A stretch of DNA of 64,000 nt. It comes from Chitinophaga pinensis. Lineage in GTDB: Bacteria > Pseudomonadota > Gammaproteobacteria > Burkholderiales > Burkholderiaceae_C. The notes under the pieces were generated by a model. It had not been told where the DNA came from. It did not search any database and worked only from the letters and a program-made list of their open reading frames with translations. Below, one piece after another: positions 45,818 to 63,967 of this stretch (position 1 is the first letter of the stretch; the number at the start of each line of letters is the position of its first letter). The stretch spans positions 38,389 to 102,388 of the forward strand of contig CALRRO020000007.1 of NCBI GenBank assembly GCA_943370595.1, in the 5' to 3' direction. The position numbers and the translations under genes are program-made.

Positions 45818-46771
45818 TCACCGATCGTGATGCACGTGTTGTGCCGCCTGCAGGCGCACGACTTCGCGCGCCACCACGTCGTGTACCGCGTTGCGCAGCC
45901 AGCGGCTCGCTGGTTCTTCATGGGCACGCCGGTGCCAATGCTGCATGACCTTGAAGCGCCGCTGCAAGACCGGCAGTGCGAACACCTTCAGCCTCGTACC
46001 TAGCGGATGCAGACCGACCAGCGTGGCCGGAACGGCTGCCACCACGTCGGTGGACGCTACCAGGGACGGTACCGAAAGAAAGTCCGGCACTCTCGTCACG
46101 ACGCGCCGCTCCGGCGAGAGAGCCTCCAGTGCGGCCTCGATGCGGCTCAGCGCAGGGCCGCGAGGCGCCACTGCGCAGTGCATGCAGCGCAGGTAGCCGG
46201 CGAGCGTGTCGAGCTGGGCACTCAGCGGATGCCCGACGCGTGCGATTCCCACGTACTGCTCATCGAGCAGTTGCTGACGCACCAGCGTGGCATGTGTCTT
46301 CCACGGTGTGCCGATCACCAGGTCCAGCCGCCCGGCTTCCAGCTCCGCCCAGACATCGTGTCCATCCACCCGAACGACATCGATCTCCACCTTGAGGCGG
46401 GCCTCGTCGATGAGCCGCAGTAACCCAGGCAGGATCAGCAACTCGGCCAGATCCAGCATGTGCACGCGAAACCGCTGGGGCACGCGCTCCGGTTCGAAGT
46501 CGATGGAGAGGCCCTGCAGGCGGTCGAAGTCGAGCAGCAGTCGCGTGGCCTCCTCGGCCAGCCGCGTCCCCAGGGCCGTGGGTACAAGGTGACGTCCTGA
46601 ACGCACGAACAACGCATCGCTGTAGTGCTTGCGCAGTTGGTCGAGCGCATGGCTCAGCGTCGATTGCGACTTTCCCAGGCTCGCGGCTGCGGCCGTCACG
46701 GTGCCCATGCGCGCCAGTTCCCGCACCACCCGCATCAGGCCGACATCGATCTCCCGACTTGCCCGTGACAT
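45818..46771 (-). CDS. LysR family regulator
   Basis: AA.SLG.SQS.LSHAL..LR....D.LF.R; substrate-binding domain of NahR/DntR type. Confidence 0.9.
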   Translation of the reverse strand: MSRASREIDVGLMRVVRELARMGTVTAAAASLGKSQSTLSHALDQLRKHYSDALFVRSGRHLVPTALGTRLAEEATRLLLDFDRLQGLSIDFEPERVPQRFRVHMLDLAELLILPGLLRLIDEARLKVEIDVVRVDGHDVWAELEAGRLDLVIGTPWKTHATLVRQQLLDEQYVGIARVGHPLSAQLDTLAGYLRCMHCAVAPRGPALSRIEAALEALSPERRVVTRVPDFLSVPSLVASTDVVAAVPATLVGLHPLGTRLKVFALPVLQRRFKVMQHWHRRAHEEPASRWLRNAVHDVVAREVVRLQAAQHVHHDR

Positions 46772-46783
46772 GCACCTTTCCTT

Positions 46784-46804
46784 TCCATCGACTGGATCGA
46801 TGGA
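46784..46804. promoter_or_regulatory. LysR operator in the divergent promoter
   Basis: TCCATCGA-ctgga-TCGATGGA palindrome with an ATCG-N7-CGAT core. Confidence 0.7.
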
Positions 46805-46883
46805 TGGTATGGCATCGATCGCTGCACCGGAGCCGGGACCGCTCCTACGATCCGCGGCAAACAAGTCGAGGCAGGAGACAAGC

Positions 46884-47855
46884 ATGAAACGACGCTCGCT
46901 GGTGCTGGGCGTGCCGCTGTCTGCCGGCATGGGGTTCTCTGCCATGGCGCAGGGCACGGGGACGGCCGCAGTGGGCCCGATCCGGATCGTCGTTCCCTAC
47001 CCCGCCGGCGGCCCGGTGGATGCCGCTGCTCGGGAACTGGCGCGCGGCATGGGTGCCCAGATGGGCACGACAGTAATCGTCGACAACAAGCCTGGGGCCG
47101 GCAGCACGCTCGGCGCTGCCGACGTGGCAAGGTCCAGCCCCGACGGCCAGACGCTGTTGTTCTCGCTGCCCGACTCGTTCCTGTACGTCCCACAGCTCTA
47201 CAAGCGTCTGCCTTACGACCCCGCCAAGGACCTGGCCCCGGTCACGCAGGTGGCACTGACGCAGCCGGTGATGGTGCTGCGCACCGACGCCGCCGTCGCC
47301 TCGCTTCGCGATCTGGGCAAGGCCGGCGCCGGCCTGGCTTTCGGTACCTGGGGACAAGGCACCTACCCTCACCTGATAGCGGCTGCCCTCGCCCGCTCGA
47401 CGGGCGCGGACCTCAACATCATTGCCTACAAGGGCGGCGCCCCGGCGGTGCAGGACTTCATGGGCGGCCACATCCAGATGACCATTGCCGGCATCCCGCA
47501 GGCCCTGGACATGCAGGCCAAGGGCATGGCCCGGATCGTGGCCGTGGCGGGCACCGAGCGATCCAGACTCGTGCCCGACGTGCCCACCTTCGTCGAACTG
47601 GGTTTCAGCGAGCCGACCTTCACGCTCCCACTCTGGGTAGCCCTGGCAGCACCTGCAGGGACGCCCGCGGCCGCGATCGAACGCTTGAACGAATCCGCCT
47701 CGGCCACCGTGCGCTCGCCTCAGATGCAGCTCTTCCTGCGGGGTTTCGGGTGGAGCGCAATGGGCAACAGCGCGGCCGAGTTCGGCGCCGCACTCAAGCG
47801 CGAGGCTCCCATCGTGGCGGCCGCGATGCGCGCAGCCGGCGTGCAACCCGAGTGA
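46884..47855 (+). CDS. Bug/TctC periplasmic binding protein
   Basis: IRIVVPYPAGG..D..AR, DNKPGAG, YKGGAPA. Confidence 0.92.
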   Translation: MKRRSLVLGVPLSAGMGFSAMAQGTGTAAVGPIRIVVPYPAGGPVDAAARELARGMGAQMGTTVIVDNKPGAGSTLGAADVARSSPDGQTLLFSLPDSFLYVPQLYKRLPYDPAKDLAPVTQVALTQPVMVLRTDAAVASLRDLGKAGAGLAFGTWGQGTYPHLIAAALARSTGADLNIIAYKGGAPAVQDFMGGHIQMTIAGIPQALDMQAKGMARIVAVAGTERSRLVPDVPTFVELGFSEPTFTLPLWVALAAPAGTPAAAIERLNESASATVRSPQMQLFLRGFGWSAMGNSAAEFGAALKREAPIVAAAMRAAGVQPE

Positions 47856-48844
47856 GCGCTACCACGACGGCTGCCGTCGAGGAGCGCTGGATCGGCAGCA
47901 GCCACGATCCGCGGGCGCGGATCTTCGTGCGCGCACGCGGGCAACGAGGCGAAACGCCGCTGGTGCTGGTACACGGCTTCTTCCAGCCAGCCTCTGCGAT
48001 CCTGGACGTTCCGGGCTGGTCCCTTCAGGACTCGCTCGCGGCGACCGGCCGGCGAGTGGTGCTGTTCGATCTGCGCGGCTACGGCCGCTCGTCGCGGCCC
48101 GACTTCATGGATCGACCGCCCGAGCAGAGTTCGCCCGCGCTGGGTTGCCTGGCCGACGCGATGGCGGACATGGAAGACGTTGTTCAGCACGTCTGTGAAA
48201 CTGAAGGCTGCGCACAGGTCGACTTGCTCGGCTACTCATGGGGAACGGCCCGCAGTGCCGCATACGCGCTGGCCCACCCCCGACGCGTGCGGCGACTGGT
48301 GCTGTACGCGCCGGTCTGGCGCCCGCGCAGCGGCGCCGCGGCCGAGGCAGCCGCGCGCGGGGATTCCGAAAGCCTCGATCGACGACTGGGTGGCTACCGC
48401 ACGTTTGGTCCCGGCGACTTGTCCCGCCAGTGGGGCGGAGAGTTCGGGCCACAAGACCCTCGAACGTTCAGAGATCCACGGGTTGTGGATGCGGCCGAAC
48501 AGGCCCTGTTCGCATCGGACTCTGCGCTGGGTGGGCAGGGCTACCGGGCGCCGCTGGGCCCCATGCTCGATGCGTTGGGCGTCGCCCGAGGCCGGCCACT
48601 GTTCGATGCTGCCGCTTTGCAGGGCAGTGTCCTGCTGGTTCGGGGGGATTGCGACAGGCTTTCCGTCGCCGACGATGCAGCCGGGTTGTTCGCGCAGATG
48701 CAAGCGCCTGACCGGCGCCTCGTGACCATCGCCCGCGGTACGCATCTGCTGCATCTGGAGCATGCGCGCTGGCAACTGATCGACGAAATCGTCGGATTTC
48801 TCGGTAGGTCGCGCCTGCCCGTGCCGCGGGCCATCACAGGATGA
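47852..48844 (+). CDS. Alpha/beta hydrolase
   Basis: VHG, DLRGYGRS, GYSWG nucleophile, GD.D, GTH. Confidence 0.88.
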   Translation: MSATTTAAVEERWIGSSHDPRARIFVRARGQRGETPLVLVHGFFQPASAILDVPGWSLQDSLAATGRRVVLFDLRGYGRSSRPDFMDRPPEQSSPALGCLADAMADMEDVVQHVCETEGCAQVDLLGYSWGTARSAAYALAHPRRVRRLVLYAPVWRPRSGAAAEAAARGDSESLDRRLGGYRTFGPGDLSRQWGGEFGPQDPRTFRDPRVVDAAEQALFASDSALGGQGYRAPLGPMLDALGVARGRPLFDAAALQGSVLLVRGDCDRLSVADDAAGLFAQMQAPDRRLVTIARGTHLLHLEHARWQLIDEIVGFLGRSRLPVPRAITG

Positions 48845-48976
48845 ACACAGCAGCGGCCGCCGCCTCAACTTTTCGAGCAGGCCAAGGACGCTGGCGCGCA
48901 TCGGTTCGCATTCCACGTGCATGGGGACGGCGTGTTCCACATGCGCGAGAAGACCTTTCGCTGACTGGAGACCACG

Positions 48977-50125
48977 ATGAAAGCACACCGTACACCGTCT
49001 TGCCGGATCACGCGACGCGCCGGCCTGCAACTGATCGCTGGCGCCGCGGCGAACGTGGCACTGCCCGGCCGTTCCCAGCCCCGTGCCGTCCGCATCGGGA
49101 CGACCTTCGACAACAGCGGCCCGGAGCGCGCCAACGGCTCCGCCAACTTCAAAGGCGCGCAGGCCTACTTCAACGCTGTCAACAAGGCGGGCGGCATCCA
49201 CGGAGCCAAGATCGAACTGGTGCCGCTCGACGACCAGTTCAAGCCCGAGCTTGCGAAGTCCAATGCGCAGACCTTGTCCAGTGATCGCTCGGTCATCGCC
49301 TTGCTGACGCCGCTTGGAACGAGGCAGACCGCCGCGATCATGGAATCGGTCAGGGACCTGGCCATCGTCGGGCCGGTCACCGGAACCGCGGCGCTGCGAA
49401 AGTCCAGTCCGCCGAACCTCTTCTGGGTGCGGGCCAGCTACGACCAGGAGGTCGATCGATTGATCCGAACGGCCACGACGCTGGGCATGGCCCGGATCGG
49501 CATCGTGCATCCGAAGGATCCTCTGGGCCAGTCCGTGCTGGCGGCATTCATCAAGTCGATGACCGCCGCCAAGCTCGAGCCCGCGATCATCGCCACGACG
49601 CCAGGAACGACCAGCACCGAGGTCGGTCCCGCTGTGGAGGCCGTCGCCAAGGCCCGACCTCAGATGGTGGTCATGGTTGCCGCGGGAGCCATGCCGGCGC
49701 TGGTGCGTGGCCTGCGTGGCGCCGGCGTCGCGAGCTCGATGTACGGGCTGTCCATTGGCGCCAGCGCGGCAAACATCGGAGAGCTCGGTTCGATGGGGCG
49801 GGGCATTGGTTTCGCCATCGTGGTCCCGCCACCGAATGCACCGAAATACGACATCGTGCGCCGCTATCAGGCAGACATGCGCGCCAGTGGAGCGGATCAA
49901 TTCTCGCTGCCGTCGCTGGAGGGCTACGTCAACGCGCGCATCATGGGAGAAGGTCTGCGCCGTGCCGGGCCGAGTGCGACCCGCGAAGGAATGATCGCCG
50001 CTCTCGAGAGGATCGAGGCGTTCGATATCGGTGGCATGCAGATTGGCTACGGTGCAGGCAACCGGGTAGGCGGGACGTTCGTCGATGTGGCAGTGCTTGG
50101 ACAAGATGGACGACTGATCGCTTGA
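48977..50125 (+). CDS. LivJ-like (class I) periplasmic binding protein
   Basis: N.AGGIHG.KIELV.LDDQ, SLEGYVNA. Confidence 0.88.
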   Translation: MKAHRTPSCRITRRAGLQLIAGAAANVALPGRSQPRAVRIGTTFDNSGPERANGSANFKGAQAYFNAVNKAGGIHGAKIELVPLDDQFKPELAKSNAQTLSSDRSVIALLTPLGTRQTAAIMESVRDLAIVGPVTGTAALRKSSPPNLFWVRASYDQEVDRLIRTATTLGMARIGIVHPKDPLGQSVLAAFIKSMTAAKLEPAIIATTPGTTSTEVGPAVEAVAKARPQMVVMVAAGAMPALVRGLRGAGVASSMYGLSIGASAANIGELGSMGRGIGFAIVVPPPNAPKYDIVRRYQADMRASGADQFSLPSLEGYVNARIMGEGLRRAGPSATREGMIAALERIEAFDIGGMQIGYGAGNRVGGTFVDVAVLGQDGRLIA

Positions 50126-50349
50126 GCTCTGACACGGCGTCGAGGCCAGACCGTGCAACTCACGGGCTCGATCGGCTGCTTGTGGTGGTCGAGCTTCTGG
50201 CTGCGAACGGCTGCGGTGGTTCGACTCGAGCTACTCGTGGTCGGCGACAGCAGTCACTCGAAGTGGCACAACCGCGATTTCAGGTCCCGGCCAATAGCGG
50301 AACTGGAGCGGCTGGCCGCTGAGCAGACAGTCGACACTCGGGCGGTGCG

Positions 50350-52032
50350 CTATGCCATAAGTCGCTCGACGAACTTGCGTGCCGGTTCGAGTTCTGGATC
50401 GCCCTTCAGATCCTTCTTCAATGCCTCGTTGACCCACTTCGGCCCGTGATTGCCGACGCTTCGCGCAAAGCCTTCGACTTCGCCGACCTCCACGACATGA
50501 ACCCCAAAGCTACGCAGCGTCGTCATGAGTCGCTCAAACGCTTGAGTCGCCTGGCCAGGGGGAACGAATGGCTTGCCGACCTCTTTGGCCGTCGCCCACG
50601 GCGACGCGCGCTTGAACATCTTCTGAATCGCATCCTTAGCTTCCTTGGGAAAGGCTACTGATTTGATACCTGCCAACACCTTGTTGACGCCCTCCCTGAC
50701 TTCCTCCGCAGTGAGTTCCGGCTTTTTCGACTCGATTGCTGATCTGACCTGATTCCAATCCGCAACGACAGCACTCCAATCGCCACCTGTTGCTTCGACG
50801 ATGTCTCTAAGGGGGCGCTCTGCGTTCAACACATCGAAGTCGACAACAACTGCAATCGGAACGTCGACCTCGCGGAGCGCACGAATGACCAAGGCACATC
50901 GATCTTTCCCGCCGCAATGGGTAAACATGACGTCCGGCCGCCGCGTGTTCTGATCCTTCGCCTCGACTAGCGAGTCGGTCATCGCCGAATAGAAGCGCGC
51001 GTCAGCATCCCCTTCACAGATGATGACCTTCTCGTGAAACAGTCCATCGAGGATGTTGGAGTAGCGAAGCAATGGGTCATTCCATAGTTCGGCAACCTTT
51101 GCATTCTCGAGTTGGCGAACGTGATTGACGCTACCAATCCTCCGCAAGCGAACCACGCGAACTGCCGAGCCGCCTGCGTCTAGTACGCCCCGCAGGATGT
51201 CACCGCTGTGTGTTGCGACAAACATCTGCCTTGCTTCTGGCTTGTCCGCGACGAGCATCCGGCCCAACTGTCTTGCCTGCGGGGGGTGCAGGAAGGCTTC
51301 GGGCTCATCAATCAGAAGGACGCTCTCTCGGCCTACAGAGGTGTGTAAAAGGACGCCGGCAAAGCTACGCATCCCGTCGCCTTGCGTATGAAGCATGGGC
51401 AGTGCTTCGACTTGCTGTATGTACTCGTGGCTGATTCGATCCTTTCCGGCCGCAGGTATGGGGCGCTGACCAACATGGAGCGGCACCTGGTTGCCGGCAA
51501 CGCGGTTCACAACAAGGTCAACGCCGAATGCCCTCTGAAACTGATCGCTCAAACGCTTCTCAAGCTCATCGTCACGCATCAGATAGTGAATCGGATGGCT
51601 TGCAGGCTCTCGAACAATAGCGATGCTCCCAGGCGGATTTGCCGCACCAAGCCTTTCGTCTGCCGTAAGCAGGTGGCAAAAGAAGCGAGCAAGAGCTTGA
51701 AGCGGATTCTGGCCGGACCAGCAGTTGGAGATTTGGCTCTTGTGAACTCCAGTACCGAGCGCCTGAAACACGGGGTCCGGAGCGAACGGATCGCTCTTCC
51801 TTGTGAATGAGTCGAGCCATTCCACCACCTCTTCGGTATCCCCCTCTCGCACGGAAGTCAAGCTAGATACGACGTTGCTGTGAACGTTAGTCGCCAGCTT
51901 GTCCCGGACGGCACGCAGCGTTGCACTCTTGCCCGCGTTGTTGGGCCCTACGACGAGCACTATGTCGTTCTTGGAAAGAGCTACGGTAGATCCGTCGCTA
52001 AACGCCAGTTGCTGAACCCAAAGACGAGGCAT
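50350..52032 (-). CDS. OLD-family ABC ATPase + TOPRIM nuclease
   Basis: GPNNAGKS, QGDGMRS, LLIDEPEAFLHP, ATHS, ICEGDAD, VVDFD. Confidence 0.85.
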   Translation of the reverse strand: MPRLWVQQLAFSDGSTVALSKNDIVLVVGPNNAGKSATLRAVRDKLATNVHSNVVSSLTSVREGDTEEVVEWLDSFTRKSDPFAPDPVFQALGTGVHKSQISNCWSGQNPLQALARFFCHLLTADERLGAANPPGSIAIVREPASHPIHYLMRDDELEKRLSDQFQRAFGVDLVVNRVAGNQVPLHVGQRPIPAAGKDRISHEYIQQVEALPMLHTQGDGMRSFAGVLLHTSVGRESVLLIDEPEAFLHPPQARQLGRMLVADKPEARQMFVATHSGDILRGVLDAGGSAVRVVRLRRIGSVNHVRQLENAKVAELWNDPLLRYSNILDGLFHEKVIICEGDADARFYSAMTDSLVEAKDQNTRRPDVMFTHCGGKDRCALVIRALREVDVPIAVVVDFDVLNAERPLRDIVEATGGDWSAVVADWNQVRSAIESKKPELTAEEVREGVNKVLAGIKSVAFPKEAKDAIQKMFKRASPWATAKEVGKPFVPPGQATQAFERLMTTLRSFGVHVVEVGEVEGFARSVGNHGPKWVNEALKKDLKGDPELEPARKFVERLMA

Positions 52033-52506
52033 CCCATCCCTCCCATAAGCGCGAGCGCTCGATCGTACAAGGCAAGCGGATCGACGCCGGCCGACGAGAC
52101 GTTGCGCGTCGCGTCTACTGCGCCATAGCGGCGCAGGCGAGTTCGAAAGCAAGAGCCAGAGCTGCCAGCCTGGCAGGTCCGACGGGAGGCAAGCCACGCC
52201 CAGAACCACCGTTGGCCTGCGAGATCGCCCACGTCTGCTGTGTCGTAGTGCGACTGACGCCTCTGGGTCGATAGCACGCCGAGGCCAACGAGATTGGCTT
52301 GCCACAAAGCTGCCGTCGCTCGCAGCGCAGCGTGAGGAGCGAGCCCGTGGAGATGGCATGTCTGGAATCACGCCCCACGCAGTCGCAGCCGAACCCTTCG
52401 GCCACGCCGCGTGTGCGGCCAGGTCAGTCGCAGTGACTGGCGCACGGCAGTCGCAATCTTGTGGCGTGAGTCGCAACTTGTTCTGCGCCCCACGGCAGTG
52501 TCGAAA

Positions 52507-52809: not shown

Positions 52810-53064
52810 TCAGCCGCCCGCAATCGGCGGCCAGATGGCGAGCACGTCGCCATCCTTCAGCACATGGCTCAGGCGCTGATCGGGCGGTACGTAGACGCCG
52901 TTGACGAGCACCAGGTGCACCAGTTTCTCCGGCAGGCCGAAGGGCTCGATCACCTGGGCGATCGGGCTGCCCTCGGGCAGCTCGAGCGCCACGCGGTTGT
53001 CGTAGCGGTGCTCGGCGGGCAGGTACTGCGTCAGGCTGGCGTAGAGCTTGAAGGTAATCTTCAT
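52810..53064 (-). CDS. MoaD/ThiS-like sulfur carrier
   Basis: VLVNG...LKDGD.LAIWPPIAGG. Confidence 0.92.
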   Translation of the reverse strand: MKITFKLYASLTQYLPAEHRYDNRVALELPEGSPIAQVIEPFGLPEKLVHLVLVNGVYVPPDQRLSHVLKDGDVLAIWPPIAGG

Positions 53065-54332
53065 TTCGGCGGAACGAGCGCCCGCATGCTCTGCCCCTGC
53101 GCGCTGGCCAGGTAGGCCTCCATCAGCAGCGTCGGGTCGTGCTTGAGCTTGTCCTTCCACTCGCCAAGCTTCACCTGGCCTTCGACCAGGCCGCGCATCA
53201 CGCCGACGTGCTCCGTCCAGCCGATGCTGTTGCAGCCGACCATCACGTCGTCCTTGAACTGCAGGCTCAGGTGCCGGCCGGCCGGCCGATCGGTGAGCTC
53301 GACGTGCTCGCCATCGGCCACGCCCTGCCAGTTGCCGAAACTGGTCGAGATCAGGCCCAGCGTGTCGAGCACGTTGATCTGGGTGACGCCCTTGAGCACG
53401 GCCTGGCGGCCGACCATGTTCATCGCGGCGATGTAGGCCTGGTCGGCGGCGTTCGGCTGGATGGCGCTGACGATGGTCTTGCCGCTGACGATGTCGAAGG
53501 CTTCGGCGCAGTCGCCCGCGGCGTAGACGTTCGGCACGGTGGTCTGCAGGTGCTCGTCGGTGAGCACGCCGACCAGGCACTTGATCGGCGAGTCCTTCAG
53601 GAAGCCGATGTTCGGCTTCACGCCGGTGGCGCTGATGACGAGGTCGACCTCGAGCGCCTGGCCGTTGGAGAGCTTCACCTTCATCGCGCCGCCCGCGGCC
53701 GCCTCGATCGCCTCGACCCGCGCGCCGGTGAAGACACGCACGCCCTTCTTCTCGCACCAGTCCTTGATCATGCCGCCGGCCGTCGGGCCCATCATGCGCG
53801 GCACCATGCGGTCGCCCATCTCGACGACCGTCAGCTCGACGCCGCGCGCCGCCAGCGCCTCCATGATGATGCAGCCGATGAAGCCGGCGCCCATCTGCAG
53901 GACGCGCGCGCCCTTGCCGGCGCGGGCCATGATCGCGCGCGCATCGGCCAGGGTCCAGCAGCTGTGCACGTTCGGCAGGTCCATGCCGGGGATCGGCGGG
54001 CGCACCGGGCTGGAGCCGGTGGCGATCAGCAGCCGGTCGTAGGGCAGCGAGGAGCCGTCTTCCAGATGCACCTGGTGGCGCCCGGTGTCGATGCCCTTGG
54101 CGCGGCCGCGCTTGAGCTCGATGCGCAGGCTGTCGAAGTGGCCGGCGCTGTGGCGCAGGTGCGTGCCCTCTTCCTGCACGTTGCCGATCAGCAGGTAGGG
54201 GATCGCCATGCGCGAGTACGGCGCCTCCGGCTCGTCGCCGACCAGCACGATGCGGTCGTTCGGGGCGTGCTTGCGGATCGTCTCCGCGGCGATCACGCCG
54301 GCCGGGCCGGCGCCGAGGATCACGTGGTTCAT
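53061..54332 (-). CDS. aorC: FAD-dependent NAD(P) oxidoreductase subunit of AOR
   Basis: GAGPAG, YSR, IATGS, GAGFIG, YAAGD; position in the operon. Confidence 0.85.
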   Translation of the reverse strand: MNHVILGAGPAGVIAAETIRKHAPNDRIVLVGDEPEAPYSRMAIPYLLIGNVQEEGTHLRHSAGHFDSLRIELKRGRAKGIDTGRHQVHLEDGSSLPYDRLLIATGSSPVRPPIPGMDLPNVHSCWTLADARAIMARAGKGARVLQMGAGFIGCIIMEALAARGVELTVVEMGDRMVPRMMGPTAGGMIKDWCEKKGVRVFTGARVEAIEAAAGGAMKVKLSNGQALEVDLVISATGVKPNIGFLKDSPIKCLVGVLTDEHLQTTVPNVYAAGDCAEAFDIVSGKTIVSAIQPNAADQAYIAAMNMVGRQAVLKGVTQINVLDTLGLISTSFGNWQGVADGEHVELTDRPAGRHLSLQFKDDVMVGCNSIGWTEHVGVMRGLVEGQVKLGEWKDKLKHDPTLLMEAYLASAQGQSMRALVPPK

Positions 54333-54347
54333 GTCTTGGCTTCCTTC

Positions 54348-54378
54348 AAAGAAAGAAGGCGGTCTTGCAACCGCCTTC
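54348..54378 (-). terminator. Intrinsic terminator-like hairpin between aorB and aorC
   Basis: Minus strand GAAGGCGGT-tgcaag-ACCGCCTTC followed by TTTCTTT. Confidence 0.75.
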
Positions 54379-54400
54379 GTTCGTCACGCGCGAATGTCGA

Positions 54401-56248
54401 TCACAGGCCGAGGCGGCTGCGCGTCTCCGGCTTGAGCTGGCCGTCGCTGTCCCAGCCGCGGGCGGCGTAGTACTTCGGCAGCATCTCGGGCAGCTTGTTG
54501 ACCAGGCCCTTGGCCGGGCCGGTCTTGGCCGGCTCGTTGAGCAGGCGCGGCGGCAGCGAGTCGTCCTTGGAGGTGAAGCCGGCGCGGTTGTTGAAGTCGC
54601 GCTCCATGTTCCAGATGCGCTCGCCGATCTTGGCCATGTTCTCCAGCGTGAACTCGGGCCCGCAGGCGGCGGCCACCTGCGGCGCCACGTCGGCCAGGCC
54701 CCAGGCGAAGCTGGTGAAGATGCAGATGCCGGCCGAGTCGAACGCGGCAGTGGCGTCCTGGAAGGCAATCACCAGCTCGGGCTTGCCCTCGGCGGTCAGC
54801 GGGTCGGTCTTGACCGGGATGCCCAGCACTTCCGAGGCCACGGTGTAGCTGCGCAGGTGGCAGGCGCCGCGGTTGCTGGTCGCGTAGGTCAGGCCCATGC
54901 CCTGGATCCCGCGCGAGTCGTAGGCCGGGAACTCCTGGCCCTTGACGCTCATGCTCAGCTCGGGGTGGCCGTACTTCTTGCACAGGCGCGCCGAGCCCTG
55001 GCCGATTTCCTTGCCGAAGCCTTCGCCCTTCGCGGTGATCTCGGCAAAGTGCGCCAGCGCCTGCGCGCTGCCGAACTTGGCGTCGATGCCGAGCTGCTCG
55101 GCCGTGAGCACACCCATCTCGTAGAGCTCCATCACCGCGCCGACGGTGGCGCCGAAGGAGATCGGATCGAAACCCTGCTCGTTGCACAGCAGGTTGGCGT
55201 ACTGCAGCGCCTCCAGGTCGTTGACGCCATTGGCCGCACCGAGTGCCCAGGCCGCCTCGTACTCCAGGCCGCCGGAGGCGCCCCAATACTGCGGCTTGTT
55301 CTGCACGGTGAAGTGGCCCTGGTCCATCTTGCTGATGCGGCCGCAGGCGATCGTGCAGCCGAAGCAGGCCTGGTTGGTCACCAGCTGCTTCTTGCCATCG
55401 GTCTTGCGCGGCGTGGCCATCGCTTCGGCGGAGATGTCCTTCGCGCCTTCGAAGGCGACGTCCTTGTGGTTGCGCGTGGGCAGCGCGCCGATCTCGTTGA
55501 TGACGTTCATCAGCACCTGGGTGCCGTAGGTCGGCAGGCCCTGGCCGGTGACGGCGTTGTCGGCGAGGATCTTCTTCTTCTCGAAGGTGACCTTCATGAA
55601 CTCCTTGGGGTCGGCGACGTTGCCCACGCCCTTGGTGCCGCGCACCGCGATGGCCTTCAGGTTCTTGCTGCCCATCACCGCGCCGACGCCGGAGCGGCCG
55701 GCCGCACGGTGCAGGTCGTTGACGACTGCGGCGTACAGCACCTGGTTCTCGCCAGCCAGGCCGATGCTCGACACACGCGCCAGCGGCTGCTGCAGCTGCT
55801 TCTTCAGCGTCTCTTCGGTCTCCCAGACGCTCTTGCCCCACAGGTGCGAGGCGTCGCGCAGCTCGGCGACGTCGTCCTCGATGTAGAGGAACACCGGCTT
55901 GGCCGACTTGCCTTCGAAGATGACCATGTCCCAGCCGGCCATCTTCAGCTCGGCGCCCCAGTAGCCACCGGAGTTCGAGCAGGCGATGGCCCCGGTCAGC
56001 GGGCCCTTGGTGACGACGGTGTAGCGGCCGCCGGTGGAGGCCATCGTGCCGGTCAGCGGGCCGGTGGCCCAGATCAGCTTGTTGGCCGGCGACAGCGGGT
56101 CGACCTTGGGGTCGACCTCTTCGACGATGTACTTGGTGGCCAGGCCGCGCGAGCCGAGGTAGGCGCGCGCCCAGTCCATGTTGGTGGGTTCCGACGTGAC
56201 GGTGCCGGCGGTGAGGTTGACGCGGAGGATCTTTCCAGCCCAGGACAT
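54401..56248 (-). CDS. aorB: Aldehyde:ferredoxin oxidoreductase catalytic subunit (tungstopterin family)
   Basis: GKILRVNL, SNSGG.WG..LK.AG.D, GRSG.GAVMGSKNLKAI, EYE, RGACH, D..G.C.F. Confidence 0.93.
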   Translation of the reverse strand: MSWAGKILRVNLTAGTVTSEPTNMDWARAYLGSRGLATKYIVEEVDPKVDPLSPANKLIWATGPLTGTMASTGGRYTVVTKGPLTGAIACSNSGGYWGAELKMAGWDMVIFEGKSAKPVFLYIEDDVAELRDASHLWGKSVWETEETLKKQLQQPLARVSSIGLAGENQVLYAAVVNDLHRAAGRSGVGAVMGSKNLKAIAVRGTKGVGNVADPKEFMKVTFEKKKILADNAVTGQGLPTYGTQVLMNVINEIGALPTRNHKDVAFEGAKDISAEAMATPRKTDGKKQLVTNQACFGCTIACGRISKMDQGHFTVQNKPQYWGASGGLEYEAAWALGAANGVNDLEALQYANLLCNEQGFDPISFGATVGAVMELYEMGVLTAEQLGIDAKFGSAQALAHFAEITAKGEGFGKEIGQGSARLCKKYGHPELSMSVKGQEFPAYDSRGIQGMGLTYATSNRGACHLRSYTVASEVLGIPVKTDPLTAEGKPELVIAFQDATAAFDSAGICIFTSFAWGLADVAPQVAAACGPEFTLENMAKIGERIWNMERDFNNRAGFTSKDDSLPPRLLNEPAKTGPAKGLVNKLPEMLPKYYAARGWDSDGQLKPETRSRLGL

Positions 56249-56261
56249 GTGTGTGCTCCTC

Positions 56262-56738
56262 TTACGCGGCAGAAGGTTGATTGCCCAGCTTGTCGGCCCA
56301 GGCCTGCATCTTGTTCAGGCCGGTCCAGTTGGCGTCGACGTAGGTGATGGCGCCGGTCGGGCAGGCGGTGGCACAGGCCGGGTCGCCGCCGCACAGGTCG
56401 CACTTCTGGACCTTGCCGGTTTCCTGCACGTAGTTGATCGTGCCGAACGGGCAGCTGATCGTGCAGACCTTGCAGCCCACGCAGGTGGTCTCGTTGACGA
56501 CCTTGGCGCCGGTCAGCTTGTCCAGCGTGATCGCCTCCACCGGGCAGGCGTGCAGGCACCAGGCCTCGTCGCACTGCGTGCAGGTGTAGGGCACCTTGCG
56601 GCCGGTGTGATGGAAGTCGAACACCTTGATGCGCGACTTCGCCGTGGCGTAGGTGCCGTAGTTCTCGAACGAACAGGCCATCTCGCACTGGAGGCACCCG
56701 GTGCACTTGTCCGGGTTGATGTGGAGCGTCTTCTGCAT
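56262..56738 (-). CDS. aorA: 4Fe-4S dicluster subunit of AOR
   Basis: CxxCxxCxxxC, CxxC...CxxxCP, CxxCxxCxxxCP, KCDLC...CxxxCP. Confidence 0.92.
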   Translation of the reverse strand: MQKTLHINPDKCTGCLQCEMACSFENYGTYATAKSRIKVFDFHHTGRKVPYTCTQCDEAWCLHACPVEAITLDKLTGAKVVNETTCVGCKVCTISCPFGTINYVQETGKVQKCDLCGGDPACATACPTGAITYVDANWTGLNKMQAWADKLGNQPSAA

Positions 56739-56770
56739 GAGCTTCCTCGGTGTTGGGGCGTCAGGCGCGT

Positions 56771-56792
56771 GCTATGCACGACCTTGCATAGC
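56771..56792. promoter_or_regulatory. Inverted repeat upstream of aorA
   Basis: GCTATGCA-cgacct-TGCATAGC. Confidence 0.5.
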
Positions 56793-56793
56793 T

Positions 56794-56809
56794 TGCTGAG
56801 GGCGAGCCA
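56794..56809 (-). promoter_or_regulatory. Weak sigma54 promoter candidate for aorA
   Basis: TGGCTCGCCCTCAGCA: correct GG-N10-GC spacing but poor -12 box. Confidence 0.35.
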
Positions 56810-56841
56810 GAGCCACCATCCGGGGGAAACCCTAGGATTTG

Positions 56842-56865
56842 CTCCAGCGCGTCACAGCGCTGGAG
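56842..56865. terminator. Hairpin downstream of the substrate-binding gene
   Basis: CTCCAGCGC-gtcaca-GCGCTGGAG; no clear U-tract. Confidence 0.4.
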
Positions 56866-56882
56866 GCTTCACGCGCAAAAGC

Positions 56883-57704
56883 TCAGACCGGGCGCCAGGC
56901 CAGGTTGGCGCGGGCGAAGATTTCTGCCAGGCGGCCGCTGGCGGCCAGTTGGTTGACCGCGGCCTGAAGCGCCTGCGCCAGCTCGGTGGCGTCCTTCTTC
57001 ACCGCCATGCCGACCGCCCAGCCGTCGCGCGGGGCGCGTGGCGAGGGCAGCGGCTCGATGGCGAAGCGCGCATCGCCGCGCAGCACCGCCTGCAGTTCGG
57101 ACAGCAGCCCGGCGGCCACCGGCACCTCGCCACGCTGGAGTGCCCGTGCGGCCTCGACGCCGTCCTTCGACTGCGTGCGCAGGGTGTTGCGCAGGGCGCC
57201 GCTCTCGGCCCCGATCAGCAACCAGCCGGCCAGCGACTGCCCGGGCACCGCCACCGGCTTGCCGGCCAGATCGGCCAGCGCCTCCAGCTTCGGCACCTGC
57301 TCCAGATGGCGCGCCACGGCGACCCGCTCGCGCCAGTACGGCGCGAACACGCTGACCTGCGGGTTGGCATCCATCAGCGGGCGGTCCACCGGCACGTGCA
57401 GCAGCACGTCGGCCGGGCCGTAGCCGAGGTAATGGCCCTTCCAGACCATGTTGCGCAGGTCGTCGTTCATGTTCTCGTCAGCCGGGAACGGCAGCGGCGA
57501 GAAGGCCACGCCCAGCGTCTCGGCCAGCGCTCGGCCGAGCTCGACATCGATGCCACCGCCGTCGGCATGGAAGGGCGGCATGTCCTTGTACAGGCCGACG
57601 ACGAGGCTGCCGCGGCTCTTCACCTTGGCCAGCGGCGTGGCCGACAGCAGCCCCGGAAGCGCAGCCAGAGCCGCCGCGCCCAGCACATGGCGGCGGCCGA
57701 TCAC
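56883..57704 (-). CDS. Periplasmic binding-protein fold, quinoprotein-associated (MxaJ/XoxJ-like)
   Basis: RR signal, GIDVEL, DDLRNMVWKGHY; coupled to the cytochrome c gene. Confidence 0.75.
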   Translation of the reverse strand: MIGRRHVLGAAALAALPGLLSATPLAKVKSRGSLVVGLYKDMPPFHADGGGIDVELGRALAETLGVAFSPLPFPADENMNDDLRNMVWKGHYLGYGPADVLLHVPVDRPLMDANPQVSVFAPYWRERVAVARHLEQVPKLEALADLAGKPVAVPGQSLAGWLLIGAESGALRNTLRTQSKDGVEAARALQRGEVPVAAGLLSELQAVLRGDARFAIEPLPSPRAPRDGWAVGMAVKKDATELAQALQAAVNQLAASGRLAEIFARANLAWRPV

Positions 57705-58180
57705 AGCGGCTTCTCGCGGCGGGTTTCGAGGTAGGCCTTGATCGACCAGACGGCTTCCTGGTTCATCATGCCCTCGAACGGCGGCATGTAGACCGCGCCG
57801 TTGCGCGTGCGGCCCTTGCGCACGGTGCTGGCGAAGTACTCGTCGATCTCCTTCACGCAGGCCGCCTTCTTCTTCTCGTCCTTCAGCGTCGCGCACTCGT
57901 TGTCGAGCTTGCGCAGGTCCGGCGCGATGCCGCCGGAGATCGCCTCCAGGCCGTGGCAGCGCGCGCAGTTCTGGTTGTAGGCGGAGGTGCCGACCTTCAC
58001 CGCCGCCTCGTTCTTGCGGAACGGGTTCTCCACGCGCCAGGCGTCGCCGAGCTTGGGCAGCGTGCTGGTGTCGACCGCCTGCGGCGTCACGTCGCCGTGC
58101 GCCCAGGCCGGCTGCCATGCGGCGCCCGCCAGCAGCGCGCCGACAAGAAGGAATCGATGACGGGAACGGTGGCTGACCAT
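57701..58180 (-). CDS. Cytochrome c550, PedF-like
   Basis: HGDVTPQAVDT, CARCH heme motif, APDLR, YMPPF. Confidence 0.88.
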   Translation of the reverse strand: MVSHRSRHRFLLVGALLAGAAWQPAWAHGDVTPQAVDTSTLPKLGDAWRVENPFRKNEAAVKVGTSAYNQNCARCHGLEAISGGIAPDLRKLDNECATLKDEKKKAACVKEIDEYFASTVRKGRTRNGAVYMPPFEGMMNQEAVWSIKAYLETRREKPL

Positions 58181-58405: not shown

Positions 58406-60493
<2,088 letters not shown>

Positions 60494-60634: not shown

Positions 60635-60650
60635 CGGCATGGCTCTTGCA
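60635..60650 (+). promoter_or_regulatory. Sigma54 promoter of the pqqB-like/TolQ-like operon
   Basis: CGGCATGGCTCTTGCA; palindromes TGTGC-N8-GCACA (60616-60633) and TGTGCCAGC...GCTGGAACA (60534-60571) upstream. Confidence 0.8.
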
Positions 60651-60684: not shown

Positions 60685-61374
60685 ATGAAGATCCACGTGC
60701 TCGGCACAGGGGGCCGCGCAGATTGCCGTCAATGCACCGCCGGTGCAGCCGACGGCCGGGCGCTCCCGTCGCGGCTGGCCGGCGCCATCGCCGTGGCCGG
60801 CGAGGAACAGCGCTGGCTGCTGGTCAATGCGGCAGCGGAGATCGCACACCACTCGCACATCGAGCACGCGGCGCGGCACGGCCACATTGCCGGCATCGTG
60901 CTGCTCGACGCCCAGCTCGAACACGCCGCGAGCCTGGCCGAACTCAGCCGCCTCGGGCCGCTGAACCTCTATGCCACGCCGGCCGTGTTCGAGGAGCTGA
61001 CCAGCCGACTGCCGATGCTCGGCCTGCCCGAGGGCGGCAGTGCAATGCGCTGGCACCTGCTGCCGGTGGCCGGCGACGTGCGCAGCGCCGAGTTCCGCGT
61101 CGAGGGCATCGAGTCGCTGCGGTTCGTCGCCGTCGACGAAGAAGGCTCGGCCGCGCCCTACTCGCCCTGGCGCCGCGAGGCGGTGGTCGGCGAGAGCATC
61201 GCGCTGTTCGTCGAAGACCTCTGCGACGGCCAGCGCCTGGTCTGTTCGCCTCGTGCCCGCGGCGACGTGCGGCCGCGGGCAGAAGGCGCGGACTGCCTGC
61301 TCGTCGACGGCTCGGCCTGCCCGCTCGCGGCCGGCATCGAGGTCGCGTTCGACGGCATGGAGATCGGCCTGTGA
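60685..61374 (+). CDS. Degenerate, shortened PqqB-like protein
   Basis: MKIHVLG, WLLVNA, DAQLEH, LNLYAT.V.E.LT, AFDGMEI.L resemble PqqB; lacks GGGFPQWNC; 229 aa. Confidence 0.7.
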   Translation: MKIHVLGTGGRADCRQCTAGAADGRALPSRLAGAIAVAGEEQRWLLVNAAAEIAHHSHIEHAARHGHIAGIVLLDAQLEHAASLAELSRLGPLNLYATPAVFEELTSRLPMLGLPEGGSAMRWHLLPVAGDVRSAEFRVEGIESLRFVAVDEEGSAAPYSPWRREAVVGESIALFVEDLCDGQRLVCSPRARGDVRPRAEGADCLLVDGSACPLAAGIEVAFDGMEIGL

Positions 61375-62048
61375 TGCGCGCTGCCTCGCCACCGCGCCCC
61401 GGCGCGCCGGCGCTCGAGCCGATCTGGCTGGAGTGGTTCGCACTCGCCGGCATGCTTGCCTTCGCGACCTGGCTGCTCGGCGGCCGCGGCGTGTGGGCGC
61501 TGCTGCTGCACTCCGACCCGACCGGGCTGACGCTGGTGATCATCGTGATCTTCGTCGCCGCGACCCTCTGGTGCGGCGCGCGCGCCCGCGAACTGCAACA
61601 GCAGCGGCGCTGGCTGGAAGACGCGCGGGAGGCTCATGGCGGCACGGCCGCCACAGGCTGGGCGGCCGACTACTGGGCCGCGCTGCGCACCGCGCCGCGC
61701 GATGCCGGCGCGCCGCTGGACGTGCTGCTCGAGCGTTGCCACGGCCCGCACCACACCGCGTGGTGGGTCAATGGCATCCAGCTCAAGCTCGGCCTGCTGG
61801 GCAAGGTGATCGGCTTCTCGATCCTCGCCATCGAGATCGGCCAGATCCAGAACTTCGACGCCTCGCAGTCGCAGGAACTGCTGCGCAGCCTGACCACCGG
61901 CCTGGGCGTCGCGCTGCTGACGACGATGGTCGGCCTGGTCGGCAACATCCTGCTCGGCCTGCAGCTGACGCGGCTGGACCGCTATGCCGACGTGCTGGTG
62001 GCCGACGCGCAGCGGCACGGCATGACCCTCGCCACCGCGGAGCGCTGA
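61374..62048 (+). CDS. MotA/TolQ/ExbB proton-channel family protein
   Basis: LGLLGKVIG...GLGVALLTTMVGL; TGATG coupling to the upstream gene. Confidence 0.8.
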   Translation: MRAASPPRPGAPALEPIWLEWFALAGMLAFATWLLGGRGVWALLLHSDPTGLTLVIIVIFVAATLWCGARARELQQQRRWLEDAREAHGGTAATGWAADYWAALRTAPRDAGAPLDVLLERCHGPHHTAWWVNGIQLKLGLLGKVIGFSILAIEIGQIQNFDASQSQELLRSLTTGLGVALLTTMVGLVGNILLGLQLTRLDRYADVLVADAQRHGMTLATAER

Positions 62049-62051
62049 GCC

Positions 62052-62657
62052 GTGCGCAGGCGCCGCTTCTCCCGCGAAGCCGAGGTCGACCCGTTCTACG
62101 ACATGTTGTTCAACATGCTGATCGCGTTCGTCTTCTGCTTCATCATCGCGCTGCTGGCGATGAACCCGAAGGCGCTGAAGGCCGGCGACATCCCGTCCAA
62201 GGCCGAGTACATCGTCAACGTGTCGTGGCCGGACATGAACCCGAACGACATCGACACCTGGGTGCAGGACCCGGCGGCCAACCTGGTGTGGTTCCGCGCC
62301 CGCGAGGCCGGGCTGATGCACCTGGACCGCGACGACCGCGGCCTGGCCAACGACGTCATCGTGGTCAACGGCAAGCAGGTGGCCAACCCGCTGAACACCG
62401 AGGTGGTGACGATCCGCGGCATCGCACCGGGCGAGTACACCGTCAACGTCCACTACTACGAATCGACCAACGGCCAGCCGGTGGAGGTGACGGTCTCGGT
62501 CATCAAGGTGAACCCGCGCGCCGAGGTGGTCTTCTACGGCACCGTCGCGCTGGCCCGCAAGGGCGACGAGGCCACCGCCGCCCGCTTCACCGTGCTGCCC
62601 GACGGTTCGGTGACCAACGTCAACACCCTGCCCAGGACCCTGGTGCAACGCTTATGA
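62052..62657 (+). CDS. Single-TM protein with ExbD/MotB-like Asp helix and YfaP/DUF2135-like periplasmic domain
   Basis: DPFYDMLFNMLIAFVF TM; DIDTWVQDP, LDRDD.G, EVVTI...PGEY.VNVHYY. Confidence 0.65.
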   Translation: MRRRRFSREAEVDPFYDMLFNMLIAFVFCFIIALLAMNPKALKAGDIPSKAEYIVNVSWPDMNPNDIDTWVQDPAANLVWFRAREAGLMHLDRDDRGLANDVIVVNGKQVANPLNTEVVTIRGIAPGEYTVNVHYYESTNGQPVEVTVSVIKVNPRAEVVFYGTVALARKGDEATAARFTVLPDGSVTNVNTLPRTLVQRL

Positions 62658-62766
62658 GACAAACCGCTTCAGTACCGCGCGGCGGGCCGAGCGCCGGGCC
62701 GCTCCCAAGCCGGCCCGCTATCCCCCCGGGGGATCGACCGACGTATTCGTCGGGCGAGGGGCGCAC
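62658..62766. repeat. Palindrome-rich intergenic element
   Basis: gcgggcc...ggcccgc, atccccc-c-gggggat and ccgacg-tatt-cgtcgg packed into about 110 bp. Confidence 0.55.
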
Positions 62767-63261
62767 ATGACGACTGCCGTCGTGCTGAGTTTTGCTGCCC
62801 TCGTGCTGCTGTGCACGCTGGCCCTGCTGTGGTCGCGCTGGCCGGCGTGGCTGAAGGCCATGCTGGTGGTCGCCGTGACCGGCTTCTACTTCTATGCCGA
62901 CGGGCAGGTGCATGGACTGGCCGGCTGGCCCAGCCGCGACGCGCTGCCCGAACGCTTCGTGCTGCTGGCCGCCGTGATCGAGGAGCCAAGCTCGAAAGCC
63001 AAGGGCGCGCTGTACGTGTGGGTCCACGAGCTGAAGGACGGCAAGCCGTCGGCGCAGCCGCGTGCCTACCAGCTGCCCTATGCGAAGGACCTGCACGCAT
63101 TGCTCAACGAAGGCATGAAGAAGGTGCGCCAGGGCATCAGCCAGATGGGCACGGCCGAGCCGAAGGCCGGGCCCAAGGGCTTCTCGTGGCTGCGCCCGGG
63201 CAGCGACGAGCAGAACGTCAAGATCCGCGACCTGCCGGTGCCGCAGCTGCCGGAAAAGTGA
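62767..63261 (+). CDS. Hypothetical 2-TM membrane protein
   Basis: Two N-terminal TM helices, then GWPS...LP.RF.LLA...PRAY.LPY. Confidence 0.8.
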   Translation: MTTAVVLSFAALVLLCTLALLWSRWPAWLKAMLVVAVTGFYFYADGQVHGLAGWPSRDALPERFVLLAAVIEEPSSKAKGALYVWVHELKDGKPSAQPRAYQLPYAKDLHALLNEGMKKVRQGISQMGTAEPKAGPKGFSWLRPGSDEQNVKIRDLPVPQLPEK

Positions 63262-63271
63262 ACCCCGCGAC

Positions 63272-63967
63272 ATGAAGTTCCTGCTGCCCATCGTCGTTGC
63301 GCTGCTGTTGTGCGGCTGCAGCGCGCCGAAGGACGACACCTTCTTCCCGCTCGCCAAGGGCCACCGCTGGGCCTACGAGCTCACCACCGAGTGGGAGAAC
63401 AACATCGTCGAGCACGAGCAGCGCAGCCTCGAGACGCTGGGCCGCGACACGCTGGAGTCCGGCGAAGCCTGGCGGCGGCGCAGCGACAGCGGCGTCGACT
63501 ATTGGCTCCGGAGCGACGCCAGCGGCATCTACCGCGTCGCCACCAAGAGCGAGCTGCAGGCCGAGCCCGAGCCGGACAAGGAGCCGCGCTTCGTGCTGAA
63601 GGCGCCGTACACGGTCGGCACCACCTGGCGCGCCAGCACCACCGCCTACCTGCTGCAGCGGCGCCAGGAGTTCCCCCGCGAGATCCGCCACAGCCACCCG
63701 TCGGTGCCGATGAACTACACGATCGAGGCGGTGGGCGAGAAGGTCGCCACGCGCGCCGGCGAGTTCAGCGGCTGCCTGCGCGTCAAGGGCGTGGCGGCGC
63801 TGCGCTTGTTCGCCGACCCGGTGGCCGGCTGGAAGGACATGGCGCTGACCACCACCGAGTGGTACTGCCCCGGCGCCGGCCTCGTCAAGCTGGTGCGCGA
63901 GGAGCCGGCGCAGTCGACCTTCCTGACCGGCGGAACGCTGACAATGGAGCTGGTCGACTGGCACTGA
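63272..63967 (+). CDS. Hypothetical lipoprotein
   Basis: Lipobox LCGC; beta-rich with EWYCPG.GLVK. Confidence 0.8.
   Translation: MKFLLPIVVALLLCGCSAPKDDTFFPLAKGHRWAYELTTEWENNIVEHEQRSLETLGRDTLESGEAWRRRSDSGVDYWLRSDASGIYRVATKSELQAEPEPDKEPRFVLKAPYTVGTTWRASTTAYLLQRRQEFPREIRHSHPSVPMNYTIEAVGEKVATRAGEFSGCLRVKGVAALRLFADPVAGWKDMALTTTEWYCPGAGLVKLVREEPAQSTFLTGGTLTMELVDWH

Follow-up and report, generated by a model that had tools for sequence, protein, structure and literature searches.

The 64,000-nucleotide stretch of contig CALRRO020000007.1 analyzed here (the window) encodes, at positions 61374-63967 of its forward strand, four proteins (A to D), of which the first two appear to constitute an undescribed and divergent pair of the MotA/ExbB type whose partners are non-canonical. 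Such a pair had been proposed in an earlier annotation of this DNA made without database searches (the sequence-only reading), and is supported by both the family profiles of A and the architecture of B. Comparative genomics places the Burkholderiales form of this module within an alcohol-oxidation regulon and points to its core, A-B-C, as a three-gene module common to phages and bacteria.

All four genes announced by the sequence-only reading (encoding a MotA/ExbB-like protein, a single-transmembrane (TM) partner, a 2-TM protein and a lipoprotein) are present as open reading frames (ORFs) on the + strand, with strong coding signal (G+C content at third codon positions, GC3, of 0.91-0.98). Gene A (61374-62048, +) is predicted to encode a 4-TM MotA/ExbB/ZorA-like channel protein of 224 aa bearing the motifs GLLGK144V and ALLTT184, and gene B (62052-62657, +) a protein of 201 aa in which a single N-in TM helix with an ExbD/TolR-type Asp17 (PFYDMLFN) is followed by a periplasmic PPC/DUF2135-like beta-sandwich. 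Gene C (62767-63261, +) would encode a 2-TM protein of 164 aa with a small extracytoplasmic domain, and gene D (63272-63967, +) a lipoprotein of 231 aa with a LolA/YmcC-like open beta-barrel fold. The first gene of the operon lies immediately upstream (60685-61374, +) and encodes a PqqB-like protein of 229 aa; its stop codon overlaps the ATG of A (TGATG), and A and B are separated by 3 nt. Past position 63967, D is followed by genes for a family III CoA-transferase and then an acyltransferase. The operon probably comprises the PqqB-like gene, A, B, C and D, extended in this genus by the CoA-transferase and the acyltransferase, with the A-D region as the predicted distal part of a sigma54-dependent transcription unit. 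The possibility that A-D represent a pseudogene remnant was ruled out, given that B is 69-95% identical across genera and that the frames are intact in 80 loci.

Protein A itself scores just under the cut-off of the Pfam MotA_ExbB model (PF01618; 20.8-21.1 bits, E=3.5e-4, cut-off 22.9), and eight of 11 diverse A homologues match the same model at E≤0.01, the best of them at 8.2e-10. When the A-family profile was compared with PDB sequences, the closest entry was the ZorA-like 8vvn (1.3e-4), followed by TolQ (0.017), ExbB (0.09) and MotA (0.3). The closest model to A in a PADLOC scan was ZorA (0.004; 4e-9 for a phage homologue). Because its homologues match the Pfam model and the family profile matches ZorA, TolQ, ExbB and MotA, the assignment of A as a divergent member of the MotA/ExbB superfamily is supported by transitivity. 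Four TM helices with both termini in the cytoplasm are predicted from the sequence and the positive-inside rule, leaving as cytoplasmic parts only about 60 loop residues and a 24-residue tail. The final two helices read KLGLLGK144VIGF and ALLTT184MVGL, and their motifs GLLGK144V and ALLTT184 are taken here to be the counterparts of GLFGT148VWGI and ALLAT181AIGL in ExbB (E. coli numbering). The channel motif GLLGKV, with Lys where the family has Thr, is thus found in A exactly as first described.

Protein B is basic at its N-terminus, and its helix (residues 14-37) is associated with the motif D13-P-F-Y-D17-M-L-F-N21, akin to TPFIDVML of ExbD. The TM Asp is kept by 121 of the 139 representatives of the family and, among phage copies, by 71 of the 72 that are readable, which bears out the ExbD/MotB-style Asp (PFYDML) recognized in the sequence-only reading. 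Residues 53-191 form a confidently predicted all-beta domain, modeled as a beta-sandwich (AlphaFold2 (AF2) pLDDT 84). Neither the ExbD/TolR periplasmic domain (PF02472) nor an OmpA-like domain was matched by B or by 11 of its homologues, and a genome-wide scan with PF02472 recovered 11 other genes, B not being among them. The YfaP-like label given to this domain in the sequence-only reading goes back solely to JGI names on B homologues and to a weak match to DUF2135 (PF09906) in one of 11 members (E=0.028; 14.9 bits, cut-off 22; 25 residues). One member of the family gave a weak PPC match (0.057), and the motifs D-x-D-x-W-V and G-E-Y-x-V-N resemble those of PPC-type sandwiches. Foldseek comparison of the B model with the PDB retrieved nothing meaningful (best E=5e-3, TM<0.2), and comparison with viral models retrieved uncharacterized phage proteins alone; profile searches with B and C against PDB sequences gave no match. 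Eight residues of B are invariant (W59, D66, D68, D94, D95, G97, E117 and R122). The acidic cluster D66, D68, D94, D95 and E117, together with R122, is plausibly a functional site comparable to the Ca2+-type site of PPC-like sandwiches, and would not be lanthanide-specific, because it is invariant in phage copies too.

Protein C has two TM helices and a small domain, with a weak DUF4131 match in three of nine members (best 4.4e-4), and ends in a conserved C-terminal tail, DLPxPxxPxK. Direct reading of its first helix revealed no His and no TonB-type SHLS/His motif, and no TonB_C domain was matched in any of A-D. Protein D carries the lipobox LLCG/C, which is conserved in its relatives, an invariant Cys168 and a nearly invariant Cys199. 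Its AF2 model (pLDDT 89.6) is an open, unclosed beta-barrel for which Foldseek returned 4fvs (6e-7) and 3fzx (5.6e-5), both with probability 1.0 and TM ~0.45, as well as the LolA-superfamily structure 3buu (probability 0.94); at the sequence level only a weak match was recovered (DUF3108_like, E=0.29). On this model, D has the predicted LolA/LolB-superfamily (YmcC-like) fold. Occurrence of D is confined to quinoprotein-linked clades. A periplasmic orientation of the B head, C and D is supported by the positive-inside rule together with the lipobox and the cysteines that are conserved.

Paired pore states of A and B were taken from profile alignments. In the phage triads and in a marine gammaproteobacterium both pore positions of A are Thr, and B has Asp at position 17 and Asn at position 21. 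In the Burkholderiales (77/77 loci) the first A position is Lys and the second Thr, with B17 Asp and B21 Asn. Bradyrhizobium and Tardiphaga (5/5 loci; 9/139 representatives) have Thr at both A positions, Val at B17 and Lys at B21, the pore Lys being found on B instead and the Asp being lost, while Thermopetrobacter keeps both A Thr and the B Asp and has Leu at B21. Compared with the pore-threonine ring of ExbB (T148/T181), the first equivalent is therefore Lys144 in the Burkholderiales (A Lys144 in 77/77 loci, B Asp in 80/80 loci) and the second, T184, is kept. When 183 B sequences were placed in a tree, the clade of the Burkholderiales (support 0.95) came out as sister to the Bradyrhizobium-type clade (0.83), both being nested in a phage-free clade (0.955) that also holds the marine gammaproteobacterial copies. 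On these alignments the Lys of GLLGKV is real, derived and fixed in the Burkholderiales clade, the derived state following from the Thr found in phage and basal members. It does not characterize the class as a whole, being specific to the Burkholderiales clade.

The TM Asp is considered essential in known motors. Its conservation in B is high (121/139 representatives, 80/80 Burkholderiales loci), yet, by the criterion that the sequence-only reading itself had set, the Val of the Bradyrhizobium clade casts doubt on canonical proton coupling for some of the sub-family. Replacement of Thr by Lys next to B-Asp17 probably alters or gates ion coupling, and the Lys and Val-Lys pore changes taken together may reflect altered coupling, gating or a static complex.

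The B family is large. A total of 2794 close homologues were found, named 'hypothetical' or at most tentatively ExbD/YfaP, identities between genera (Methylibium, Azohydromonas and Ideonella, for example) being 82-92%; an exhaustive B profile search reached 2438 clusters at 50% identity, of which 1837 lie at E≤1e-10. A search for related loci with a narrower B alignment gave close relatives only. A, B and C are adjacent in every genomic locus examined (13 distant and 80 Burkholderiales loci). A scan of IMG/VR identified 337 viral contigs with a B relative, and in 77 of the 80 that were retrieved the three genes lie side by side on one strand. Because the triad is common in phages and in contexts unrelated to pyrroloquinoline quinone (PQQ), its core activity cannot be PQQ- or lanthanide-specific. 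The notion that the module is a PQQ-specific invention is accordingly abandoned, its core being abundant in phages and in bacteria with other gene contexts. Literature searches on MotA/TolQ/ExbB in connection with PQQ, on pqqB alongside ExbB/ExbD, on DUF2135 and on 5:2 motor surveys did not reveal any description of the module. A minimal triad was also observed on a metagenome contig (L117, 7541-9100), with A of 157 aa, B of 193 aa and a C-like protein of 173 aa, in a phage-like context of small unannotated ORFs, a metallophosphatase, a ThiF-like gene and an AAA ATPase.

In the present lineage, the proposed tie to quinoprotein genes is upheld by synteny in 80 loci and by co-occurrence with pqqC. 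Gene neighborhoods were assessed by tblastn with a marker set of our own in 56 loci with at least 8 kb of upstream sequence and 53 loci with at least 6 kb of downstream sequence. Upstream of the module a sigma54 activator occurs in 52 of the 56 loci, a cytochrome c in 49, PqqB or a PqqB-like protein in 47 and a periplasmic binding protein in 37; a TonB-dependent receptor (placed after the cytochrome c and binding protein genes), pqqC and a tungsten-type aldehyde oxidoreductase (AOR) are found in 11, eight and seven, respectively. On the downstream side, a PQQ dehydrogenase is encoded within 10 kb in 33/53 loci, and a LuxR-type two-component pair within 6 kb of D in 20/53 (within 1.5 kb in 11/53). 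In 29/61 loci A directly follows the genes for a PedA1A2BC-like transporter (YNCE beta-propeller, Peripla_BP_6, ABC-2 permease), and pqqBCDE is joined upstream in at least eight. The motif W-D-[YF]-D-G occurs in 26 of 29 cluster-linked PQQ dehydrogenases, and its extra Asp is a mark of lanthanide-dependent enzymes. The three PQQ-dependent alcohol dehydrogenases (PQQ-ADHs) of this genome (C7:128769-130466, C14:136184-137758 and C1:611633-613165) all carry D-[YF]-D, and no Ca-type paralogue was seen among them. Contig C1 of this genome, which is that of a Piscinibacter-like member of the Burkholderiales, carries the true pqqBCDE (C1:622501-625513) and PedABC-like genes in addition to its PQQ-ADH. 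The marine gammaproteobacterium has two copies of the module; the D-bearing one has as neighbors AorABC, genes resembling those for acetone carboxylase and a pair encoding PQQ-ADH and cytochrome c, and the copy without D has no AorABC or PQQ-ADH/cytochrome c neighbors. The alcohol-oxidation regulon in which the Burkholderiales module is embedded includes PQQ dehydrogenases bearing the lanthanide-type motif, together with cytochrome c, a XoxJ/PedG-like protein, a PedA1A2BC-like ATP-binding cassette (ABC) transporter and either PqqB or pqqBCDE; a LuxR-type two-component pair is often part of it as well.

Sampling at the order level was too sparse for co-occurrence analysis (5 of 301), hence one genome per genus was taken from 200 genera of the family (201 genomes). 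Among these, B is present in 30, pqqC in 43 and both in 22. The association that the sequence-only reading had suggested looking for is clear, with pqqC in 22/30 B-positive against 21/171 B-negative genomes (odds ratio 19.6, Fisher p=1.8e-11, uncorrected for phylogeny). Two of the eight B-positive genera that lack pqqC (G316 and G331) have a TonB-dependent receptor in the cluster, which may import PQQ or a lanthanide chelator. In loci of pqqC-lacking relatives (L025, 15325-17466; L027, 1028-3223), a TonB-dependent receptor gene follows those for cytochrome c and the binding protein, at the place where the window has AorABC.

A sigma54-type -24/-12 promoter-like element, CGGCATGGCTCTTGCA (60635-60650, +), lies ahead of the PqqB-like gene. 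It is preceded by a gene for an AcoR-like activator with GAF, sigma54-interaction and HTH_8 domains (58406-60493, +; Pfam Sigma54_activat 3.1e-67, GAF, HTH_8). Both a GG-N10-GC element at -24/-12 and an adjacent activator gene, the marks of a sigma54-dependent operon, are hence present at the sequence level. Taken by itself, the motif occurs in the window about as often as chance predicts (19 matches, 21 expected); an element of the CGGCATGGCTCTTGCA type is kept in 38/55 related loci, ahead of the PqqB-like gene or, where that is missing, of gene A. The sigma54 promoter assigned to the four-gene set by the sequence-only reading therefore calls for correction, since the element precedes a fifth, PqqB-like gene rather than A directly. 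On the opposite strand, a second sigma54-like element, TGGCATGGCGTTTGCA (58239-58224, -), precedes genes for a cytochrome c (57704-58180, -), an SBP_bac_3 periplasmic binding protein (56886-57704, -) and then AorABC(-MoaD-like); the divergent stretch, at 52810-58180, thus encodes cytochrome c, the SBP_bac_3 protein and the tungsten-type aldehyde oxidoreductase AorA/B/C. It is probable that the activator regulates both divergent operons. One activator driving both may join, in this genus, the tungsten-type AOR to genes that normally serve a PQQ dehydrogenase.

Taken together, these data tentatively suggest that the module is a device coupled to the proton motive force that works in the cell envelope in the service of periplasmic lanthanide/PQQ alcohol oxidation and is embedded in the corresponding regulon, a reading that we consider plausible if somewhat short of probable. 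By homology, A would form the channel ring and the N-terminal helix of B, with Asp17, would sit within it as a 'transpore' helix. Ion flow would then move B, its periplasmic beta-sandwich head being the output; a cytoplasmic domain being all but absent from A, a periplasmic output is favored. C could be a fixed third subunit with its two TM helices, and D a LolA-fold lipoprotein added in this lineage as a specific adaptor. The most likely particular job, though rather unlikely when taken by itself, would be to help supply the periplasmic dehydrogenases with their cofactor (Ln3+ and/or PQQ) or to help insert it. A more far-reaching proposal, and an improbable one, is that the triad represents an unrecognized class of ion-driven motor of phages and bacteria, recruited in the D-bearing clade as the energy-coupling step of quinoprotein cofactor supply, with a re-engineered Lys pore. 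A recruited motor of this kind might move Ln3+, a chelator or PQQ between the outer membrane, D and an inner-membrane ABC transporter or, alternatively, load the cofactor into the apo-dehydrogenase; the Lys ring of the Burkholderiales and the B Lys of Bradyrhizobium would change the coupling ion or gate the motor.

Several observations weigh against an envelope device dedicated to alcohol oxidation. The core triad is widespread in phages and in non-PQQ bacterial contexts, and the triad of Bradyrhizobium and Tardiphaga lacks D and is flanked solely by a divergent histidine kinase/response regulator pair. In this genome the nearest PQQ-ADH, an orthologous one, lies 26 kb downstream of the module. 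The co-occurrence statistic takes no account of phylogeny, and 21 pqqC-positive genera are without the module while eight module-positive genera are without pqqC; because of these discordant genera, the module cannot be a requirement for using PQQ, nor does it depend on its synthesis. A pore in which two Asp are surrounded by five buried Lys would also be non-canonical in its chemistry, and with a sister clade devoid of the Asp the usual proton conduction may be doubtful.

The kinase genes noted in these neighborhoods bring forward a different role, that of a signal-input device passing a periplasmic or envelope signal to the neighboring LuxR-type two-component system of the alcohol regulon, much as BceAB- or LiaF-type accessories do. 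In all five Bradyrhizobium/Tardiphaga loci (L030-L034) a kinase/regulator pair with a HisKA_3 kinase is adjacent and divergent, with no quinoprotein gene nearby, and such a pair occurs within 6 kb downstream of D in 20/53 Burkholderiales loci (within 1.5 kb in 11). Moreover, the Pelomonas kinase beside D, with just two TM helices joined by a very short loop on the outer side, lacks a sensor domain of its own. We nevertheless judge this role unlikely: no kinase/regulator pair adjoins the operon in this window, phage copies come without a kinase, the kinases of the two clades share the catalytic core only (28-39% identity) and differ in their sensor parts, and divergent adjacency equally fits a regulated target. 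A motor for envelope maintenance or solvent tolerance, Tol-like in nature and induced with the alcohol/aldehyde regulon with no part in cofactor handling, would account for a core shared by phages and many unrelated contexts, for the LolA-superfamily fold of D, typical of lipid or lipoprotein handling, for the continuation of the operon into an acyltransferase and for the inclusion of an aldehyde-detoxifying AOR in the regulon. The specific linkage to PqqB/pqqBCDE and to PedA1A2BC-like genes would be unexpected for a general stress role, as would the co-occurrence with pqqC, and this explanation seems to us distinctly unlikely.

Import rather than maintenance would be the purpose of a dedicated Ton-like energizer of the cluster's own TonB-dependent receptor, with C or B in the role of TonB and a lanthanophore or PQQ as the substrate. 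The receptor is found after the cytochrome c and binding protein genes in 11/56 loci, among them those of the pqqC-lacking genomes G316 and G331, and the conserved C-terminal tail of C is Pro-rich; yet most loci, this window included, have no receptor in the cluster, C has neither an SHLS/His motif nor a TonB_C domain, and the genome already encodes seven canonical ExbB-ExbD pairs, all of which makes such an energizer very unlikely. The pore itself raises the prospect of a static scaffold, in which the Lys ring would form salt bridges with B-Asp17 and the complex would neither turn nor conduct, serving to anchor B, C and D in the inner membrane. The fixation of Lys in 77/77 loci and the Asp-less sister clade would agree with it, whereas B-Asp17, B-Asn21 and A-Thr184 are invariant and B is 69-95% identical across genera, pointing to continued selection on the pore residues. 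In addition, there are other membrane machines in which Lys can relay protons, and a static scaffold is regarded as highly doubtful. An ion-coupled device serving periplasmic alcohol oxidation is thus retained as the working interpretation.

Whatever its exact task, the module presents an unstudied partner set, a beta-sandwich 'axle' subunit and a 2-TM subunit, with thousands of members, hundreds of them in phages. Each newly understood partner set of 5:2 motors has shown a new use of the proton gradient outside the cytoplasm. The fixed place of the module in Burkholderiales lanthanide/PQQ clusters gives an orphan motor a concrete, testable phenotype, and carriers such as the polyethylene terephthalate (PET) degrader Piscinibacter/Ideonella sakaiensis, Rubrivivax and Methylibium are tractable. 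The module also bears on lanthanide biology, both on the trafficking of Ln3+ and PQQ across and within the envelope and on the sensing of the rare-earth switch, and its natural Thr-to-Lys and Asp-to-Val/Asn-to-Lys pore variants are ready probes of the coupling mechanism.

Among the remaining features of the locus, the PqqB-like protein matches TIGR02108 with 90.5 bits (cut-off 245) and Lactamase_B_2 with 5e-8, aligns to positions 18-217 only of the 298-position PqqB model and has mostly lost the Cys-rich N-terminal motif. Its same-genus orthologue is 62% identical, against 84-93% for the neighboring genes. It looks like a truncated, fast-evolving PqqB paralogue under relaxed selection. Between B and C lies a repeated element resembling repetitive extragenic palindromes (REP-like; 62658-62766, 109 nt, no strand assigned), which is not part of the machine. 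The repeat (~110 bp, 62658-62780 in the window) has ~33 scattered copies in the genome, 82-97% identical, and is missing from a same-genus genome in which B and C overlap. Its candidacy as a regulatory RNA was dropped, as it folds no better than shuffled sequence (z=-0.6). Further upstream, the region 45818-52476 is poor in ORFs showing the high GC3 that characterizes this genome and may be a horizontally acquired island; it includes an ORF of 708 aa (50350-52476, -) with the Walker-type ATPase motifs VVGPNNAGKS and LLIDEPE.

Known ion-driven 5:2 motors (Mot, Exb, Tol, Gld and Zor) power very different envelope tasks. With ExbB-ExbD and TolQ-TolR, A shares the last two TM helices and the motifs GLLG-x-V-x-GF (GLFGTVWGI) and ALLTT-x-VGL (ALLATAIGL), and B the N-in helix with an Asp near its cytoplasmic end (PFYDMLF vs TPFIDVML); the genes are likewise adjacent and tightly packed. 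Unlike those systems, A has four TM helices, falls below the Pfam cut-off and bears Lys at the ExbB Thr148 equivalent, B has a beta-sandwich instead of the ExbD/TolR periplasmic domain, TonB/TolA is absent and a 2-TM protein is the third subunit. A canonical Ton/Tol paralogue was rejected on the grounds that there is no ExbD domain and no TonB/TolA. No TonB, TolA/Pal, OmpA-like or flagellar gene occurs in the operon, in agreement with what had been read from the letters, and the seven canonical ExbB-ExbD pairs of the genome lie elsewhere. ZorA of the Zorya system is the nearest solved or curated relative of the membrane part of A, and both have a 4-TM topology; in contrast, A lacks the long ZorA tail, B lacks the peptidoglycan-binding domain of ZorB, and there is no ZorC/D and no defence-island context. 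Zorya was rejected as an identification: in PADLOC, ZorA was matched only weakly, by A (0.004), and B, C and D matched no model.

The ped/exa/lut clusters of Pseudomonas putida and Methylorubrum extorquens resemble the regulon described here in their PQQ-ADH with lanthanide-type motif, cytochrome c, PedG/XoxJ-like protein, PedA1A2BC-like ABC transporter and LuxR-type two-component pair and, in some loci, a TonB-dependent receptor, and differ from it in that the latter is under the control of a sigma54 activator and, in this genus, is joined to a tungsten-type AOR. A 2026 review of the Pseudomonas ped cluster contains no MotA, ExbB, ExbD or TolQ term, and the Methylorubrum lut paper names canonical TonB-ExbB-ExbD genes and no non-canonical MotA/ExbB-like module. 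TolQ-like proteins paired with 'transpore-helix' vWA proteins have been predicted, and only predicted, by Williams-Jones et al. 2025 (PMC12204202). The present module differs from these in having a PPC/DUF2135-like beta-sandwich in place of vWA, a conserved 2-TM third subunit and an abundance in phages. Both nevertheless feature, as predictions, a TolQ/MotA-like gene without tolR/exbD and a partner in which an Asp-bearing transpore helix is fused to a non-ExbD periplasmic domain, and the transpore-helix vWA pairs are the nearest published idea to the A-B-C module.

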